Notes under the pieces: generated by a model
Told to the model about the DNA's origin: nothing
Database searches by the model: none
The model's input: only the letters and a program-made list of their open reading frames with translations
IMG/VR virus record: IMGVR_UViG_2695420523_000005
DNA length: 28,861 nt
DNA from: a virus
Taxonomy: Duplodnaviria; Heunggongvirae; Uroviricota; Caudoviricetes
Reading direction: 5' to 3' (one strand)
Part shown: piece after piece, positions 13,579 to 23,204 of the stretch
Position numbering within the stretch: position 1 is the first letter of the stretch
Layout of the letters: every line of letters starts with the position of its first letter
Made by a program: the position numbers and the translations under genes

Positions 13579-16500
13579 TTAGTTACGTTGAGTGTTTGGG
13601 TTGAGTGATCCGCCAGGGCGTTTCTCTTGAGCGATAGTCTCAAGCGCGATTGCTTTCATCCGTTGAGCGGCATTGTTCCATATGCTTTCTGTATCGCCGG
13701 ATTCTGTCGTGCTACCGTCACTATGGACGTTGATCTCAATTGATACAGGAGAAAGAACATTTCCTCCTCCACTCATACCATCGGTACTTAGCGTTACAGG
13801 GATTGTTCGACCATCAGGCAATGGAACATACGCCTCATTCATATCGCCTTCCCCAAACAACGCCAATTGAGGTGAGTTGGCGATACCGCCTTTCTGGTAT
13901 GCCCGGAGCGGGATCACGCCGTCTTTTCCGAATATTCCTCCATTTGCAAACTTCGGGATTGCAGGAATGCCATTCGTGCCATCGGCAGCAGAACTGGTCA
14001 GATTGTTGAACCCGGAAGTTGAGCCAGAAGAACCGGACATCAATCCATCGAATCCACCACCAGCCCAAGCTGAAACAAGACCAGATGCAACCGTTGCTCC
14101 AAAACTCAACCACTTATTACCAGAGCCGGAAGCATTAGCTCCAAGCATTGCAAACGCGGCAGACAGCGCGCCGGTAACAGAGCTGAGGTTCTGCATCGAG
14201 AAGATGGAGTCCTTCACTGCTTTTGTCTCAGCATCTTTGGCTTCGGTGCTATCAAATAGCCCCGATACCCAGCTACCAATCGCATTTGTTGCTGTGCCAA
14301 TTGCGCTGGTGGTCTGCTGTGTTGTTTGCCCCAATCCAGTTACCGAACTGGACGTCTCCTTCGTGGCTTCTCCTACAGACTTGTCGCCGTTAACAGTGTT
14401 GCCCATTCGTACCCCTTGATTGGCAACGGCGGAAGCAACCCCGGTCAGCAAATTACCACTCTGTGAACTACCAGCAGCGGTGGTCCCCATCCCCAACATG
14501 TTCATTAGAGGCAGCGTGATCTGCGACTTCACGACCATATTGGTGATATCTTTCAAAATGGACTGAGATAGGCTGGAGAAGCTCATCTTCCCGTTAATAA
14601 CGAAATCAGTCAGGACATCAGTTAAGCCACTAAACAAATCAGTCCAGGTGCTTTCGATCTGCTCTGCCAGGTTTTCGTATTCCAGTGCCAACTTCTGCGT
14701 CGCAGTCCCCGTCTCTTTAATAAGCGCGGTATTGCCAGCAGCAATCAGTTGATTGATTTTCTTTGTATAAAGCGCCACAACTTTAGGATCAGACGCCTTA
14801 TCACGAAGTTCTATCAACGCTTTGAGATTGCGGTTGTAGGTGTCTTCGAAATCAGCAACTTTCTCTTCACGAGACGGCGTATAGCCAGCACTAATAATGG
14901 AATCCGCCTCCGGTGCCCAAGTGGAGATCATCTGCTCAACATTGCGGCGATTAAACATCTCGCGATATTCAGGTGTCGCATTTTTGAGGTCTTCAAGACG
15001 TTTTTTCGCCTTGTCGATCATCTCTTGAGTGATGAACTCGTTAGGTACCGCATTAGCCAAATCTGTCAGCGATTTCGTTGTATCGCGAAGAGACTGATCA
15101 AACGATACCGTAGCCTTAGAGCTTTCACCCATTTGCCCCATAAGCTGATCAGCTTTGTCCAGAGCCTTCTGGTATCCGGCTGCCAGTTTCTGTTGCGCTG
15201 CCTGTTCCTTCTTGGCCGCACGCTGCGAGGCGTTAGCTGATCGTTGGGCTGCTTTCTCGGCAGCTGCTGCATCCTGTTCACGAGCTTTAGTCAGTGCAGC
15301 AATGGCTGCAGCACGCTCTTCATCGCTCATTTTCTCCAGAGAGCTGGCGCTGGATGCTTTCTGCAAATTAAGCTGCGTCTTGAGTTGTTTAGGCCCAATA
15401 ATCGGCTTACCTTCGAAGTCCATCATCGGAGTGCCGTCAGGCAAAGTACGCTGATAAGTCGCAGAATCCATCTGGTTTCGCATATATTGCGCCAGCGCCT
15501 TCTGAGCAGCTTTATCAGTTGTACCTAACCCAAGAACAGTCCCCTGGTTTGACATTACGCCCTTACCAGTTTTGGCCGCGTTATCTCTCTCGAACTCTGC
15601 CTGAGTCAGCTCCTGAGCAACGGCTTCCAAATGCTCCTGATAACCACGAATACTGCCTTGCAGTTTCTGGATCTGCTCGGTATTTCCATCCTTTTTGGCT
15701 TTTTCAAGCTGATCATTAAGAGTCGCAATTTGCTTCTCGGTCGCATTCTTACGAGAAGAAAGTGAATCAACCAGTTTTTGCGCAGGCTCCAGATAGCTTT
15801 TGTTTACCGTTTCACGTAACGGTGCCAATAGCTTGTTCTTTTCGTCATCTGAAAGTGAACCGTCATCATTGATTTTCTGGATCTTATCCAGAGCCTCCTG
15901 CCGGGCTTTCACGAATGTTGCCGCGAAAATCTGGTTTTCCGCTCGAATTTTCTCAATCTGAGATTCGGCAGCCTCTTTAGCCAAACGCTTTGCTACAGCG
16001 CCGTCACCAAGAGCTATCGTGCCGGTTATCTTTTGATACTCTTCCTGATTTTTTTTCAGGCGTGCTTCGATGTCAGCCTTCGACTCTTTGTGAGTAATAA
16101 CACCGGCAGAGTTAGATACGTAATTAACACCCTCACCAGTTTTTAATGCTCGTTGATCAGCAAGAATCTGCTTTTCGAGCTTTTCTGCGCGGTCGGCCAT
16201 TTGTGCACGTTTGGCCGCTGTCATCGCTTCTGGTATTTTCCTAATCTCGTCAACGACCTTTGAAGTTTCGCTGCGGAGCATGGTCATGTACGTGATTAGG
16301 CCAGCAACAGCTACAGTGGCAACTGTAAATGCTGCCCCTATAGGGTTTGCTGCAATGAACGCCGTTAATCCAGCAAAAGCGCCTTTAAGCCCCGTAATCG
16401 CCCCACGGATGGCGAAAATAAGAGAGGGGATCGGAGCCAGCCCCATACGTGCCGCACGATTGAATCGAGTTACTGCTGTAGCGCCGAGGTTAAATGGAGT

Positions 16501-18168
16501 CTGTATGGCGGTCGCCATCGTGGCAAAGGTGCTAACCATCTGGCTCCCAGCGCCAACTACCCCCATGATCCCTGCTCGCATCAGTTTGAACGCAACCATC
16601 GCGGCCACGACCTTACCGAGATTAATTACCAGCTCTTGGTTCTTTGCTAACCATTGAGCAAGCTGACGCAACCCATCGATTGCCGTTGTTAACCCCGAAC
16701 CTAAAGAATTGGCAAACGAAATCCCTTCGGCGCTATTCATGATTGAAGCCAGTTCTTTCATCCCCTTCGATAGAGAATCCAGATATCCGGCCTGACCAAC
16801 CCGATCAGCAAATAACGTGAATGACGTCTGAAGTTGCGCCAGCGCACCTGTGTAGGTTTGCATCATGTCTTTCGCTGCGTTCTCATTCTCCGCACGCAGA
16901 CCAACAAACATCAGAGACAACGCCTGTTTTGCCTCAACCGTACCGCTGGCAACGGCTTTAGTCAGTTCCCCCATAGTGATGCCTGCGGCGTCTGCCATTG
17001 CCTGCATCGCGTTAGGAACGGCTTCACCTAATTGCTGACGTAGCTCTTCCATTGACACGACGCCCTTACCGGACATCTGCTGAACGGCCACAGCCGCACG
17101 TTTCAACAGCTCACTATCACCACCAAAACGAGCAACGGAGTCCACCAGCGCCTTCAGAGAGCCATCGGTTGGATCTAAGCCAGCAGAACGAAACTTCACG
17201 AAGGAATCTGTTAACGCCTGCATCGCGAACGGCGCATTTTGAGCCATGTCTACGATGTACTTCATGTCATCGGCGGCAGCCTGGCCAGGGTTAGACTTCT
17301 CCTTATTCAACCCACGAAGCATCACCCGCATACGTTCCATTTCGGCCGCAGCTTCAACAATAGGCTTCTGCCATCCAAACATGATGTCAGTAACCGTTCT
17401 GGCTGCATCTCCGATCTCGCCAAGCAGGAAAATGTTGCCACGAAGGCCAGAGAACATACCTCCTTCGTTACTTTTACCGCTATGGCCAGAGCCGCTACGC
17501 CGCCCGCTGCCACCATCGCCACTTCCAGATGTACGAACGCGTACCGGCTTGCTAATCAGTTGCTGACGTCCGATAACTTCGTCCATCTGCTCACGAACCT
17601 TTTTCAGTCCCTCGGCAGCCTGACTCGTTGTGACACCCCAATTACTGAGTCGCTTCGTCGTGGTATTAAGGCGCGTATTCATGCCACTCACGGACGCAGA
17701 GGCTTCTTTGACCTCCGTACCAAAGCGGCTTGCGCTTTTGCTTGCATAGGTCGCCCAATCAGAGAAATCATTTAGCTCTGATTGCACTTTACGTAATGAC
17801 GCGGTGAGTTTATCTACTGAAGAAGTTGTCGTATCGACGCGCTCAATCAGGGCTTTAAGACCAGAATTGAGGCTGGTGATGTTGCCACGCATTTTACGCG
17901 TAGCATCTGAAGCAAGCTCAAAACCGGCAGCTACATCCTGTAGTTTATCTGCCGTAGAATCGAGCTTGCTTTCCAGAACGCCAATGATACGGGCGACCGA
18001 ACCCAAAGAGCGTTCAAAGGTTTGGATTTTTTGAGCAGGCTTTGTTACCTGCTCACCAAATCGAGTAAGCAGTTTCCCCGCACGATCGATTGACGCTGTA
18101 AACTGTTTGTCTTCCAGCGACAGGATAAACTCTACGTTTTGTGACATTCCCTTGTCATCCTCTGCCAA
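13579..18168 (-). CDS. H: Tail tape measure protein
   Basis: 1529-aa ORF, largely helical/coiled-coil with Gly-rich C-terminal part and hydrophobic central segments; position after G/GT. Start is TTG at 18168 (MAEDDKG... resembles recalled lambda gpH N-terminus MAEPVGD); first ATG is at 18147. Confidence 0.9.
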   Translation of the reverse strand: MAEDDKGMSQNVEFILSLEDKQFTASIDRAGKLLTRFGEQVTKPAQKIQTFERSLGSVARIIGVLESKLDSTADKLQDVAAGFELASDATRKMRGNITSLNSGLKALIERVDTTTSSVDKLTASLRKVQSELNDFSDWATYASKSASRFGTEVKEASASVSGMNTRLNTTTKRLSNWGVTTSQAAEGLKKVREQMDEVIGRQQLISKPVRVRTSGSGDGGSGRRSGSGHSGKSNEGGMFSGLRGNIFLLGEIGDAARTVTDIMFGWQKPIVEAAAEMERMRVMLRGLNKEKSNPGQAAADDMKYIVDMAQNAPFAMQALTDSFVKFRSAGLDPTDGSLKALVDSVARFGGDSELLKRAAVAVQQMSGKGVVSMEELRQQLGEAVPNAMQAMADAAGITMGELTKAVASGTVEAKQALSLMFVGLRAENENAAKDMMQTYTGALAQLQTSFTLFADRVGQAGYLDSLSKGMKELASIMNSAEGISFANSLGSGLTTAIDGLRQLAQWLAKNQELVINLGKVVAAMVAFKLMRAGIMGVVGAGSQMVSTFATMATAIQTPFNLGATAVTRFNRAARMGLAPIPSLIFAIRGAITGLKGAFAGLTAFIAANPIGAAFTVATVAVAGLITYMTMLRSETSKVVDEIRKIPEAMTAAKRAQMADRAEKLEKQILADQRALKTGEGVNYVSNSAGVITHKESKADIEARLKKNQEEYQKITGTIALGDGAVAKRLAKEAAESQIEKIRAENQIFAATFVKARQEALDKIQKINDDGSLSDDEKNKLLAPLRETVNKSYLEPAQKLVDSLSSRKNATEKQIATLNDQLEKAKKDGNTEQIQKLQGSIRGYQEHLEAVAQELTQAEFERDNAAKTGKGVMSNQGTVLGLGTTDKAAQKALAQYMRNQMDSATYQRTLPDGTPMMDFEGKPIIGPKQLKTQLNLQKASSASSLEKMSDEERAAAIAALTKAREQDAAAAEKAAQRSANASQRAAKKEQAAQQKLAAGYQKALDKADQLMGQMGESSKATVSFDQSLRDTTKSLTDLANAVPNEFITQEMIDKAKKRLEDLKNATPEYREMFNRRNVEQMISTWAPEADSIISAGYTPSREEKVADFEDTYNRNLKALIELRDKASDPKVVALYTKKINQLIAAGNTALIKETGTATQKLALEYENLAEQIESTWTDLFSGLTDVLTDFVINGKMSFSSLSQSILKDITNMVVKSQITLPLMNMLGMGTTAAGSSQSGNLLTGVASAVANQGVRMGNTVNGDKSVGEATKETSSSVTGLGQTTQQTTSAIGTATNAIGSWVSGLFDSTEAKDAETKAVKDSIFSMQNLSSVTGALSAAFAMLGANASGSGNKWLSFGATVASGLVSAWAGGGFDGLMSGSSGSTSGFNNLTSSAADGTNGIPAIPKFANGGIFGKDGVIPLRAYQKGGIANSPQLALFGEGDMNEAYVPLPDGRTIPVTLSTDGMSGGGNVLSPVSIEINVHSDGSTTESGDTESIWNNAAQRMKAIALETIAQEKRPGGSLNPNTQRN

Positions 18169-18822
18169 ATATTTGCATCAGTTGCTCTTTGGCGTCAGGG
18201 TCTGCCTTATCCTGGCTTGGATCGTAGACTTTATCTGTTACGACTGGTCTTCCAATCCTGAGTTGCAAACCCTCCATGAACGCCTTCACAGCCTCGCCAT
18301 CCGCCTGGGACGCACGAGCGACTTGTAAGTTGCGGACATCCTCTTCCGCACGCAGACGGTCTATATTGCGACTGAGCATCCAGAACATCGTGAGAGGAAC
18401 GTTCAGTAGCTCTAATGGCGACACGGCGTAGTGAGCAACTACACGACTGAAATAGAATCCGAGATCTATTGAGACGGTCCTTGTCCCGGATTCATCGCGG
18501 GAAATTACTTTGCCCCTTCGCCAGCCGCTTTTTCGTTTTCTTCATCAATCACTTCCATAGCGAAGGTGAAGATCTGCTGGAGTTGCGGAACAGTCAGTTT
18601 TTCAAGAACTTCATCAGGCACTGAAGGGATAACCTTACGAACCAGATCTGCATAAGCTGTCACTTGCTCAACAGGAGACATGTTCATGAGATCTTTTCCT
18701 TCCATCTGCTTGATGGAAACGAACAGACCTACCGTCATTTCAACGATGGGATATTCCTGACCGCCAAATTTGATGCTTTTCTTCGGAGGCAGAATGGAAT
18801 CGAGATCGAGTAATTTGGTCAT
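18155..18822 (-). CDS. Tail assembly chaperone G-T fusion produced by programmed -1 ribosomal frameshift
   Basis: The downstream ORF (track 18155..18424) is in the -1 frame relative to G and that frame is open from 18541, giving a 36-nt overlap window (18508..18541) containing an AAAAAG run at 18528..18533. The slip site is not the canonical lambda GGGAAAG. Confidence 0.6.
18505..18822 (-). CDS. G: Tail assembly chaperone G
   Basis: 105-aa acidic ORF immediately upstream of the tape measure; ATG 18822 with AAGGA upstream; stop TAA at 18507..18505. Confidence 0.8.
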   Translation of the reverse strand: MTKLLDLDSILPPKKSIKFGGQEYPIVEMTVGLFVSIKQMEGKDLMNMSPVEQVTAYADLVRKVIPSVPDEVLEKLTVPQLQQIFTFAMEVIDEENEKAAGEGAK

Positions 18823-18877: not shown

Positions 18878-19624
18878 TTAATCTGCGGAGTTAATCGTTA
18901 CTGACTTAGTAGCCTTCTTAGAACCGCTATTGCTGGTGAAGGAGATGTTTGCTGTACCCTGCGCCACACCGCGCACAAGACCCGTTTGATCTACCGTGGC
19001 CTTTTCCTGGTCTTCGGATTCCCAAACACCGGTTTTGTCTGCGGCATCAGCTGGAGTGATTTCGGCTGTCAGTTGCACAGTTTCTCCAGCTTTTACGGTT
19101 GGAGATTCCGGTGAGATCGACACAGTTTTTACCGGTTTAGGACCGCTCATTTTGCCCAGAACGCCTTCATCATCCGGGTATGCGCTGAACTGAACAGAGA
19201 ACACACGAACATCATCAGACTGGTAAGTCATAGTGAAGTTGCCCGCGGTTGCCGCTTTCGGGATGGTCAACACATAGTCGGTGGTGTCCTGCGGAGTCAG
19301 AACCAGCTCCTTCGCCACATCAATCAGGTTAACGCCCTGTGCAGATGTGATCGTGACAGAGTTGTCATCTTCGCTCAGAGTAGAACCAGGCATCAGGTCA
19401 ACCATGTTTTGGAGTACAGACTCAGCCAGAGGCGCGGTGATGGTAATGTTGCGCCCCTGAACTAATTCGGAAATTACGGTCTGCCCCAACTGATCGACGG
19501 TGACTTTCAGTGTTTCAGTGGCTACTTCAACCTGAACACCACCTTTGGTGTAACCCAAATCCACACCACCAAACGACACCTTACAGGCACCAAGTTTGAT
19601 GTTTTTTACATGGGTATTAGACAT
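18878..19624 (-). CDS. Major tail (tube) protein with C-terminal Ig-like (Big_2) domain
   Basis: Position immediately upstream of G; C-terminal ~80 aa (VSISPESPTVKAGETVQLTAEITPADAADKTGVWESED...) is an Ig-like repeat like those of the 22284..23204 protein. Track start 19660; I prefer ATG 19624 (MSNTHVKNIK...) with AAGGAG upstream. Confidence 0.8.
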   Translation of the reverse strand: MSNTHVKNIKLGACKVSFGGVDLGYTKGGVQVEVATETLKVTVDQLGQTVISELVQGRNITITAPLAESVLQNMVDLMPGSTLSEDDNSVTITSAQGVNLIDVAKELVLTPQDTTDYVLTIPKAATAGNFTMTYQSDDVRVFSVQFSAYPDDEGVLGKMSGPKPVKTVSISPESPTVKAGETVQLTAEITPADAADKTGVWESEDQEKATVDQTGLVRGVAQGTANISFTSNSGSKKATKSVTINSAD

Positions 19625-19672
19625 TGATGGAAAACTCCTTTTTCCGTTAATTCTACGCATTCATTGCGCTAA

Positions 19673-19698: not shown

Positions 19699-20055
19699 TT
19701 AATTCAATAAATAGCCAGCAAATTCAACAGGAATGCCTGCTTCTATTAATGCCCCATCATTTTTGGGATAAATGATTGGCATCGCCATCGGTCGAACAAG
19801 TCGAAAATAAACACCACCAGATTCCGTTTCCTCTACTGGAAACATCTCAATGATTTTATTGGCTTTCTCAACCGTCGTAGTAATTGACGAACCACGCACA
19901 ATTATTGTGAATGATTCGTGGTAAAAGCCCTGTAGCTCATGATCGATGCTGATACCGGTATTTGGGTTAATAAGCAGGACGCCAGATTTCACATTGGCAG
20001 GCAAGTAGTGACAGAAAATGTCAGTCCCGACCGTGCCAATCTTTGCCTTCTGCAT
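19699..20055 (-). CDS. Tail terminator-like protein (by position, gpU-equivalent)
   Basis: Track ORF 19699..20205 starts at TTG and overlaps the upstream gene by ~120 nt; ATG at 20055 (MQKAKIG...) removes the overlap. Function by synteny only. Confidence 0.45.
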   Translation of the reverse strand: MQKAKIGTVGTDIFCHYLPANVKSGVLLINPNTGISIDHELQGFYHESFTIIVRGSSITTTVEKANKIIEMFPVEETESGGVYFRLVRPMAMPIIYPKNDGALIEAGIPVEFAGYLLN

Positions 20056-20083
20056 CAAACTTGCAAACGCTTCAATAAACACA

Positions 20084-20557
20084 TTAACCTCTCGTAAAAC
20101 CGGCTTTTCTGGCAGCCTCAAGAATCGCTTCTGAGAACTGCTTCTCGCTAATTTCCACCGCTCTTTCCAGAAAGTGTGGCCCAACACGAGGTTTAACACC
20201 GGCAATTGGTGGGTTTGTCACGTTCTTCATTCGAGAAAGATAACCGAGTCGGTATTTACCCAGCTCCATGTACTTAGCATAGTCACCTACTTCTACGCCC
20301 GGATGCCCCTGACGTGGTTTTGCTCCAGACACAGAAAGCTCAATACGCAGCCCTGAATAACCTTCTTTAATCACCCTGGCAAAGATGGCTGTCTCCAGAG
20401 ATCCGGTTTCCAGCGGGGCCATTGCACGGCTGAGACGCTCAACCAAACGCGCCAGCTTTTCCATGTCCCGGATAAGATATCGCTTAAATGCTTTCTGGCT
20501 GTTGTTGAGTCGATTCCCCGCACGTTTGAACTGATGCGCATCGTATTTCAGACCCAT
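20084..20557 (-). CDS. Head-tail joining / tail completion protein candidate (by position)
   Basis: 157-aa ORF, ATG at 20557 overlapping the upstream stop by 10 nt; no recognisable motif. Confidence 0.45.
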   Translation of the reverse strand: MGLKYDAHQFKRAGNRLNNSQKAFKRYLIRDMEKLARLVERLSRAMAPLETGSLETAIFARVIKEGYSGLRIELSVSGAKPRQGHPGVEVGDYAKYMELGKYRLGYLSRMKNVTNPPIAGVKPRVGPHFLERAVEISEKQFSEAILEAARKAGFTRG

Positions 20558-22283: not shown

Positions 22284-23204
22284 TTATTCCTGTGCGGCAG
22301 TAACTTCTACAGTCGCTGTCGCTTTGTGGCTACCATCTTGGGTAGTAACCTCGATTGTGGCAGTGCCAGCCGCAACACCAGTTACAACACCGGTTTCGCT
22401 GTCCACCGTTGCAAACTCGGTATTTTTGGATTCCCAAGTAACGGTTTTATTTGTTGCTCCTGCCGGCTCGACATTTGCGGTCAGCTGAACAGTTTTGTTT
22501 GCCTCAACGGTTGTGCTATTTGGGTCGATTTCGACACCAGTAACAGCCACAACAGGCGCAGTTACTTCCACCGTTGCAGTTGCCTTTTTGCTGCCATCTT
22601 GGGAAACGATCTCAATCGTCGCAGTGCCAACTTCTACACCAGTAACGTTCCCGCTCTGGTCTACCGTTGCCTTGTCTTCATTTTTGGAAGACCAGGTAAC
22701 TGCCTTATTCGTCGCATTTGACGGCTGAACATTCGCTTTCAGACTGACTGATTTCCCTTTCTCAACAGAAGTTGAGTCTGGCGTTACCGTTACGGATTGA
22801 ACGGCTACCGGATTTACGGTGACTTCCACTGACGCGGAAAGCTGGGTTTCCTGATCAGTTGCGGTAATTTTCACTTTGCCTGGTGCTACGCCAGTTACTA
22901 ATCCAGTGCCGTTGACGGTTGCAATTTGATCATTGGCTGACTTCCAGGTGAATGAACTGGCACTCTTACCCATAGTAATACCTGCACTAAGTTGAACAGT
23001 TTTCCCAACCAAAACTGACGGTGAAGCCGGGGTTATGTTTACGGATTGGGAGAAGGGAACCGCCTGCAAACAAGCAGATAGCTGACTTTGCTGTCGCTCG
23101 GTTAAAGGTTCATCGGAGATTGAATTGGTAAATCCGGCACGGCACATATGCCCCGTAAAATCCGAAAATGCCTCTTCCGTAATCTTCATCTTTTGTTCTG
23201 GCAT
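22284..23204 (-). CDS. Protein with three tandem Ig-like (Big_2) domains; capsid decoration protein candidate
   Basis: Three ~90-aa repeats of the pattern SV.VTP.S.SV..GKTVQL.A.V.P..ATNK.VTW.S.N...ATVD..G.VTGV..GTA.I; ATG 23204 with GGAG upstream; immediately downstream of the major capsid gene. Confidence 0.7.
   Translation of the reverse strand: MPEQKMKITEEAFSDFTGHMCRAGFTNSISDEPLTERQQSQLSACLQAVPFSQSVNITPASPSVLVGKTVQLSAGITMGKSASSFTWKSANDQIATVNGTGLVTGVAPGKVKITATDQETQLSASVEVTVNPVAVQSVTVTPDSTSVEKGKSVSLKANVQPSNATNKAVTWSSKNEDKATVDQSGNVTGVEVGTATIEIVSQDGSKKATATVEVTAPVVAVTGVEIDPNSTTVEANKTVQLTANVEPAGATNKTVTWESKNTEFATVDSETGVVTGVAAGTATIEVTTQDGSHKATATVEVTAAQE

Follow-up and report, generated by a model that had tools for sequence, protein, structure and literature searches.

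How is the second of two small overlapping reading frames between the major tail protein and tape measure genes of an SSU5-like phage-plasmid expressed, when it has no start codon until well past the end of the first? The question arises from a 28,861-nucleotide (nt) stretch of DNA, referred to here as the window, from IMG/VR virus record IMGVR_UViG_2695420523_000005 (Caudoviricetes), where a gene that we call G is followed on the same strand by a frame that we call T. A backward (-1) slip of the ribosome lets phages make a long and a short form of a tail-assembly helper protein. Lambda G/GT and the conserved -1 frameshift in the chaperone genes of long-tailed double-stranded DNA phages are credited to Levin (1993) and to Xu, Hendrix and Duda (2004) in the review PMC5009743.

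We propose that T is reached from G by a programmed -1 ribosomal frameshift of the kind known from the tail-assembly-chaperone pair of siphoviruses (lambda G/GT type), at a terminal A_AAG (18511-18508), a reading to which we assign a probability of roughly 85%. This proposal is based on a comparison of the locus with its close and distant relatives. The original prediction, made from this DNA alone, was also of a G/GT-type -1 frameshift at a non-canonical site, and that much is strongly supported by the frame relation in relatives, by coding constraint between the two genes and by two invariant residues, D120 and F123; the site itself appears to lie elsewhere than it supposed. The elements on which the argument turns are as follows.

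18505..18822, minus strand: G-like tail assembly chaperone gene, 105 codons plus TAA, from its open reading frame and translation; matches phrog_893 ('unknown function', E 4.5e-49)
18508..18513, minus strand: proposed slip site GCA_AAG, with Lys codon 105 AAG at 18510-18508 and A at 18511; the -1 AAA is 18511-18509
18505..18507, minus strand: G stop TAA, directly 3' of the slip codon; the -1 frame reads GUA (18508-18506) and AUU (18505-18503)
18542..18544, minus strand: TGA closing the T frame upstream, the 5' limit for a productive shift in the window
18155..18508, minus strand: T segment of the predicted fusion, 117 codons from GTA (18508-18506) to TGA (18157-18155), from translation
18425..18504, minus strand: linker of 80 nt that separates the G stop from the first possible T-frame start (GTG 18424), encoding SIDLGFYFSR

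Evidence for the proposed translation of T from G

T is read one base behind G, in the -1 frame. From 18541 onward this frame has 128 open codons before TGA 18157-18155, giving an overlap with G of 37 nt, that is, 12 G codons and the stop. The original prediction had placed the opening of the frame at 18541 and the shift in the last 12 codons of G; the reading frames, with TGA at 18544-18542, bear out both statements.

The linker would be translated only by ribosomes that reach it in the T frame. From 18504 to 18425 that frame holds no ATG, GTG or TTG, and the first possible start is the GTG at 18424, 27 codons past the G stop. Among 61 unique SSU5-like sequences the variable sites of the linker fall 7/2/20 on T-frame codon positions 1/2/3, a pattern like that of the G body (43/24/83) and the T body (30/19/63). 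By this measure of site variation the linker evolves as coding sequence, under purifying selection in the T frame. The overlap itself, with 1/3/9 variable sites, shows the pattern of the G frame and not that of dual coding.

The family's most conserved motif, (S/A)ID..F.FSR, is also encoded in the linker; in it D120 and F123 are invariant in an alignment of seven distant GT proteins. In the window, this motif lies 5' of every possible start codon of T. When the full T frame was used as a tblastn query it aligned from residue 1-5 in phages of Pseudomonas (Nickievirus), Rhizobium and Stenotrophomonas at ~28-37% identity, and in the distant phages the alignments run across both annotated open reading frames.

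The frame relation is similarly conserved. T is in the -1 frame of G in 10/10 of the relatives first analysed, down to ~25% protein identity, and in almost all of 27 further IMG/VR relatives; three of these (L112-L114), called +1 by a longest-open-reading-frame heuristic, were set aside from the count. The -1 arrangement spans 92 SSU5-like loci together with Nickievirus-like, Rhizobium and Stenotrophomonas phages (~25-30% protein identity), and in all of the 100+ loci the T frame extends without a stop back into G. These relatives were collected with single T segments as queries; a scan of genome contigs gave only 4 close loci.

The predicted GT product has 222 amino acids. After G residues 1-105 it continues with VISRDESGTRTVSIDLGFYFSR, so that the junction reads ...A-G-E-G-A-K105|V-I-S-R-D-E-S-G....

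Conservation of the terminal A_AAG

In the G frame the overlap (18541-18505) reads GAA GAA AAC GAA AAA GCG GCT GGC GAA GGG GCA AAG TAA. It contains no heptamer of the form X_XXY_YYZ and no GGGAAAG, the lambda sequence that had already been noted as missing. Besides the A-run within GAA AAA GCG, which the original prediction took for the only homopolymeric candidate (AAAAAG, 18528..18533), there is a second slippery element that it overlooked: A_AAG at 18511..18508, the last sense codon of G with the stop adjoining. The string AAAGTAA occurs 7 times in the window against 3.9 expected, and is thus not rare by chance; it is context and conservation, and not occurrence, that give the motif its weight.

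That conservation is strict. The sequence G[C/U]A AAG UA[A/G] terminates G in 92/92 SSU5-like loci, which represent 57/57 distinct G genes. At codon 105 all 57 use AAG, while the four other invariant lysine columns of G all alternate between AAA and AAG. Codon 104 ends in A in 57/57 despite a switch of the amino acid between Ala and Val. As a control, every one of the 12 invariant four-fold-degenerate codons of G varies at base 3 among the 57 distinct genes. Since the lysine and four-fold controls vary freely, selection on A_AAG is visible, and what is conserved, as judged from these alignments, is the nucleotides A_AAG and not the amino acids: they are frozen synonymous sites.

A second line of evidence comes from genes in which the overlap is shorter. 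Codon 101 is GGT in 27/57 distinct G genes, and GGT GAA creates a TGA in the T frame. The overlap is thereby cut to 13 nt, either A GGG GCA AAG TAA or A GAA GCA AAG TAA, which leaves the terminal A_AAG as the only slip site. Genes of this type are found in SSU5, Yersinia, Kluyvera, Cronobacter, Enterobacter-type and several metagenomic lineages.

The stop that follows is also restricted. It is TAA or TAG, never TGA, and the next base is always T in the loci where it is listed. TAG variants turn the T-frame ATT into GTT (Ile to Val), making the stop codon dual-coded, and the base after the stop is constrained by the same Ile/Val codon.

Proposed mechanism

Most ribosomes would make G (105 amino acids), ending at UAA 18507-18505. 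A minority would slip back by one base at the last sense codon, where a single lysine transfer RNA (tRNA-Lys, anticodon UUU) would leave AAG 18510-18508 and re-pair with AAA 18511-18509. The next codon would then be GUA (18508-18506), followed by AUU UCC and so on, for 117 T-frame codons up to UGA 18157-18155. We infer that the slip is ribosomal and occurs at codon 105. Codon 104, GCA or GUA, is unable to re-pair in the -1 frame, where its tRNA would face GGC or CGU. As the 5' codon cannot re-pair, the signal would be a tetramer or hexanucleotide of the NNA_AAG kind with slippage of a single tRNA, and not an X_XXY_YYZ heptamer.

In E. coli GCA and GUA are read by cmo5U34 tRNAs with extended wobble, which would fit the rule that wobble-prone tRNAs at the 5' codon favour the shift. 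The review PMC5009743 ties the efficiency of NNA_AAG sites to the wobble propensity of the tRNA at the 5' codon; it names IS1222 as a user of such a site and B. subtilis cdd as a gene that contains one. Of the tetramers in E. coli, A_AAG has by far the strongest tendency to shift, reaching 5.6% with the IS3 pseudoknot (PMC4066793).

Possible stimulators

A stimulator could take the form of RNA structure downstream of the stop or of the stop itself, and either or both may raise the slip frequency. For the first, we find one candidate.

18442..18499, minus strand: candidate stimulatory hairpin, with a core of 8 base pairs formed by GAAUCCGG (18493-18486) and UCGGAUUC (18462-18455)

Its basal pairs join 18499-18494 with 18447-18442, and the first paired base lies 5 nt past the stop and 8 nt past AAG. 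The hairpin comes from an RNAalifold consensus of 18 distinct sequences, in which the core is paired in 100% of cells, with four pair-preserving single changes and one compensatory change from U-A to G-C (in L094); shifted-register controls collapse. The core is paired 8/8 in 25/26 distinct sequences. We regard this hairpin as a plausible stimulator, with a chance slightly short of even. No Rfam element matched 18300-18700 at an E-value threshold of 1. A small local hairpin of the form CCCG.CG....CG.CGGG was rejected, being absent in L006, and so was an upstream Shine-Dalgarno-like stimulator, which reads GAAGGGG here and GAAGAAG in Cronobacter-type loci; direct reading of the loci did not find GGUGA or GGAGA consistently present upstream.

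The second possibility arises from the position of the slip codon. A 'shifty stop' geometry is present in the window (AAG UAA) and in 92/92 loci (AAG UA[A/G]). The peptidyl-tRNA-Lys on AAG might slip while the stop waits in the A site, tandem-tRNA slippage having been lost, which we consider rather unlikely. Timing in the A site or the P site would yield the identical protein, and computation cannot separate the two.

Several points weigh against a shift at the terminal A_AAG, or against the features that could promote it. UAA-U and UAG-U are efficient termination signals, and this argues against a slow, shifty stop. Folds of single sequences past the stop are no more stable than shuffles (z -0.45; about 0 to -0.6), L131 keeps only 6/8 of the hairpin pairs, both arms encode conserved residues (E-S-G and L/F-G-F), and the sequences compared are related. 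GenBank and RefSeq list T as a separate gene with varying starts, and in the Cronobacter-type lineage, where T might start independently, an in-frame ATG lies 8 codons past the G stop. Finally, tetramers without a stimulator shift at about background in E. coli, ~0.15% (PMC4066793).

Alternative routes to T

The alternative that survives best is that there is no frameshift, and that T starts independently at GTG 18424 (89 amino acids) or at a downstream ATG, the open frame upstream being incidental. Every public annotation inspected, including that of Escherichia phage Cyrano, has G and T as two separate hypothetical proteins. The profile of phrog_1131 ('unknown function') covers only the last 84 residues of the T segment and begins at the GTG-start position; some loci offer starts of their own, by the TAATG overlap of Stenotrophomonas phage ANB28 or the in-frame ATG of Cronobacter-type loci. 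However, the annotated starts disagree with one another (GTG, for a gene of 270 nt; ATG, for one of 234, 228 or 225 nt), and direct reading finds no Shine-Dalgarno-like sequence before GTG 18424 or the next ATG. Independent initiation would also leave unexplained the coding pattern of the 80 nt upstream (7/2/20 in the T frame), the presence there of the family's most conserved motif with its invariant D120 and F123, and a T frame that is open back into G throughout the 100+ loci. The junction codon (ATT, ATA, GTT or ATC) is no conserved initiator. We judge this explanation improbable; an internal start used in addition to the fusion is conceivable.

A shift in the same direction at the upstream A-run would also produce a fusion. 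This candidate is as follows.

18526..18534, minus strand: GAA AAA GCG (A_AAA), rejected as the site of the family

Here tRNA-Lys would slip from AAA 18531-18529 to AAA 18532-18530, and the junction would read ...ENEK-SGWRRGKVISRDE.... The run named in the original prediction does exist, as GAA AAA GCG, and in the window's own lineage, with its 37-nt overlap, the T frame is open at that point. GAA AAA GC[G/T] is kept in 51/57 distinct G genes, and A_AAA is among six tetramers with measurable activity in E. coli, of which it is the weakest (PMC4066793). Against this, a shift at the run is non-productive in the GGT lineages, 27/57 of the distinct genes, where the T-frame TGA lies downstream and would end translation after ~5 codons. 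The run is missing altogether in six diverged lineages (L006, L094, L131-L135), which have GAA GCC or GAA GCA instead. In addition, variation in the overlap follows the G frame (1/3/9) and not dual coding, and the candidate hairpin begins ~30 nt away. The comparison of the slip window in homologues, which had been suggested as a check, thus picks out the A_AAG and stop (18511..18505) as the universal element and tells against the A-run as a conserved site. On this comparative evidence the A-run is excluded as the family's site, and in the window's lineage it would be at most a negligible secondary one; as the source of T it is very improbable.

One protein in the databases does have the sequence expected of a shift at the A-run. 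P0003, a metagenome protein of 139 amino acids derived from ENA and corresponding to window positions 18822..~18450, reads ...ENEK-SGWRRGKVISRDESGTRTVSIDL-SDSISVV, which is the product expected of such a shift followed by a second change of frame. It looks like the result of an assembly or sequencing indel in the A-run, and not like biological evidence.

Less probable still, to the point of being scarcely credible, is that T is joined to G by transcriptional slippage on an A-run, or that the pair is a decayed, pseudogenised single gene. There are short A-runs, AAAAA at 18533-18529 and AAA at 18511-18509, and the metagenome assembly with P0003 has a fused reading. Productive slippage of RNA polymerase needs a run of ~9 or more A/T, and the longest A-run here is 5; P0003 changes frame twice and resembles an assembly error. 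The -1 arrangement across 785 plasmid records and distant phage genera excludes a recent mutation.

The remaining routes can be dismissed briefly: reinitiation at the junction codon (ATT, ATA, GTT or ATC, not a conserved initiator), stop-codon readthrough, which would remain in the wrong frame, a +1 shift, as the +1 frame ends after 5 codons, and hopping, the T frame having no nearby AAR landing codon.

Slippery sequences in relatives outside the SSU5 group

Beyond the SSU5-like loci, other slip motifs are found at the corresponding place.

ZY21 and nickie-like phages: C_CCA_AAG
Rhizobium phage group: G_GGA_AAG, G_GGA_AAC, G_GGA_AAA
Several IMG/VR contigs: A_AAA_AAG
Stenotrophomonas phage ANB28: A_AAA_AAA
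L100-L103, IMG/VR Nickievirus-like contigs: G_GGG_GAR plus stop

The heptamers lie 0-15 nt from the G stop and before ID..F.FSR, with the exception of ANB28, where the distance is ~30 nt upstream. In ANB28 (L010, 1520-1560) a TAATG stop/start overlap supplies the T open reading frame with its own ATG, and T might there arise by two routes, fusion and translational coupling. The G homologues of L100-L103 have neither a heptamer nor an A_AAG; they end in G_GGG_GAA GCG TAA or G_GGG_GAG TAG, at or near the stop, a motif of the 'fivetwo' GGGGGAA type that PRFect lists for actinophage chaperones.

The distant relatives of the SSU5 family therefore include users of lambda's own G_GGA_AAG, as well as of C_CCA_AAG and A_AAA_AAG, and the SSU5-type G_GCA_AAG is one base off the lambda site. 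From this resemblance it looks like a derivative of G_GGA_AAG, degenerate at one base, that would retain only the lysine slip.

Comparison with known systems

The arrangement resembles lambda G/GT in having two overlapping open reading frames between the major tail and tape measure genes, with the downstream one in the -1 frame and without a start of its own, and with the shift in the last codons of G. It differs in that the 5' codon of the SSU5-type site, GCA or GUA, cannot re-pair, so that tRNA-Lys alone would slip, and in that the slip codon is the last sense codon, abutting the stop. Nor can the SSU5-type pair be linked to lambda G or T by any detectable homology of sequence.

The closer parallels for the slip itself are the NNA_AAG sites G_CGA_AAG of IS1222 and A_CGA_AAG of B. 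subtilis cdd (PMC5009743), together with the IS3-based constructs (PMC4066793). Common to these and, on the proposed reading, to the SSU5 type are the slip of a single tRNA-Lys from AAG to AAA, a non-re-pairing 5' codon ending in A, and an efficiency that in the SSU5 type would likewise be intrinsically low and dependent on a stimulator. In contrast to IS1222 and cdd, the SSU5-type site is in a phage tail chaperone rather than a transposase or host gene, its 5' codon is GCA or GUA instead of CGA, and a zero-frame stop follows the motif directly. Unlike the IS3 pseudoknot, the structure downstream is at most a modest hairpin.

PRFect catalogues non-canonical motifs of tail assembly chaperone genes under such names as 'twoonefour' and 'fivetwo' (PMC10885494). 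In its two-one-then-run shape GGCAAAG resembles the first of these classes, and its proposed slip lies very near the zero-frame stop. These classes are pattern-based hypotheses drawn from actinophage annotations, and the SSU5-like records inspected carry no joined gene. Overall, the system is known in kind, both as a chaperone frameshift and as A_AAG slippage; it is the particular combination, the strict nucleotide conservation and the abutting stop that set it apart. A literature search on the SSU5 group found no paper on a frameshift.

G as a putative tail assembly chaperone

It is position and frameshift architecture that mark G as a tail assembly chaperone; sequence profiles do not. A Pfam scan of G and the T frame found no family, the tail chaperone families included, PHROGs gave only families of 'unknown function' for both, and a profile search of G against PDB sequences gave nothing significant. 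In the AlphaFold model of G, with a predicted local distance difference test (pLDDT) score of 72, four helices come after a beta-hairpin. Proteins annotated as 'tail assembly chaperone' are enriched among the model's best BFVD matches, at rank 1 (E 1e-3, template modelling score 0.62) and again at ranks 8, 10, 11, 13, 23 and beyond. These matches between predicted structures are supportive of the chaperone identity but weak. If the identity is correct, G and GT would have the same targets as in lambda, the tape measure protein and the major tail protein.

Source phage and gene neighbourhood

The window is, by nucleotide identity, an SSU5-like phage-plasmid, sharing 99.3-99.4% identity with Escherichia phages Cyrano and CMS-2020a and 90% with Salmonella phage SSU5. 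In PLSDB, 785 plasmid records match the 801-nt G/T region; their hosts include Klebsiella, Escherichia, Enterobacter, Yersinia and Salmonella. Identity in this region is 91% for Yersinia pestis plasmids of 99-137 kb (H28, H30-H32, H35) and Salmonella enterica plasmids of 106.7 kb (pHCM2-sized), and every one of them has the 13-nt overlap type. The tail module is thus common to well-known pathogen plasmids of both species.

All genes of the region are on the minus strand, in the order major tail protein (Big_2), G, T and tape measure, so that by synteny G and T occupy the typical place of a chaperone pair. Their neighbours are as follows.

18878..19660, minus strand: major tail protein gene, 260 amino acids, with a C-terminal Big_2 domain (Pfam E 4.6e-26); phrog_1280, labelled 'Tail protein' in Cyrano
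13579..18147, minus strand: tape measure protein gene, ~1520 amino acids, with ATG at 18147, 8 nt past the T stop, as annotated in relatives

The tape measure proteins of close relatives have Pfam matches to TMP_3 and Tape_meas_lam_C. A mechanical list of open reading frames has the tape measure gene begin at TTG 18168, inside the 3' end of T, where annotated relatives use ATG 18147; the frame listed at 19699..20205 is likewise over-extended compared with the 384-nt gene annotated in Cyrano and SSU5. Upstream of the major tail gene lie tail-terminator-like genes and genes for neck and tail completion. Further on, at 22284-23204 on the minus strand and upstream of the head-tail connector genes, a protein of 306 amino acids consists of nearly nothing but repeated Ig-like (Big_2-type) segments, and Ig-like decoration is thus found on a head-side protein as well as on the tail protein (18878-19660).

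Significance

The general picture of tail chaperone frameshifting is unchanged by this proposal. If recognised as a frameshift, the SSU5-type locus would offer a natural case, under strong conservation, of a minimal A_AAG placed at the last sense codon, and with it a compact test case for whether an adjacent stop or a weak hairpin suffices to raise a tetramer to useful levels. Should the shifty stop be true, slippage would compete with release factor, with the hairpin as tuning element, and the outcome would set the ratio of G to GT. It would then be a -1 counterpart, in a structural phage gene, of the +1 logic of prfB, and would couple the stoichiometry of tail assembly to the termination capacity of the host. 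SSU5-like phage-plasmids are very common in clinical Enterobacteriaceae, among them pHCM2-type elements of Salmonella Typhi, parts of Yersinia pestis plasmids and many plasmids of E. coli and Klebsiella, and if the frameshift were recognised, the annotation of a conserved gene for virion assembly could be corrected across them.

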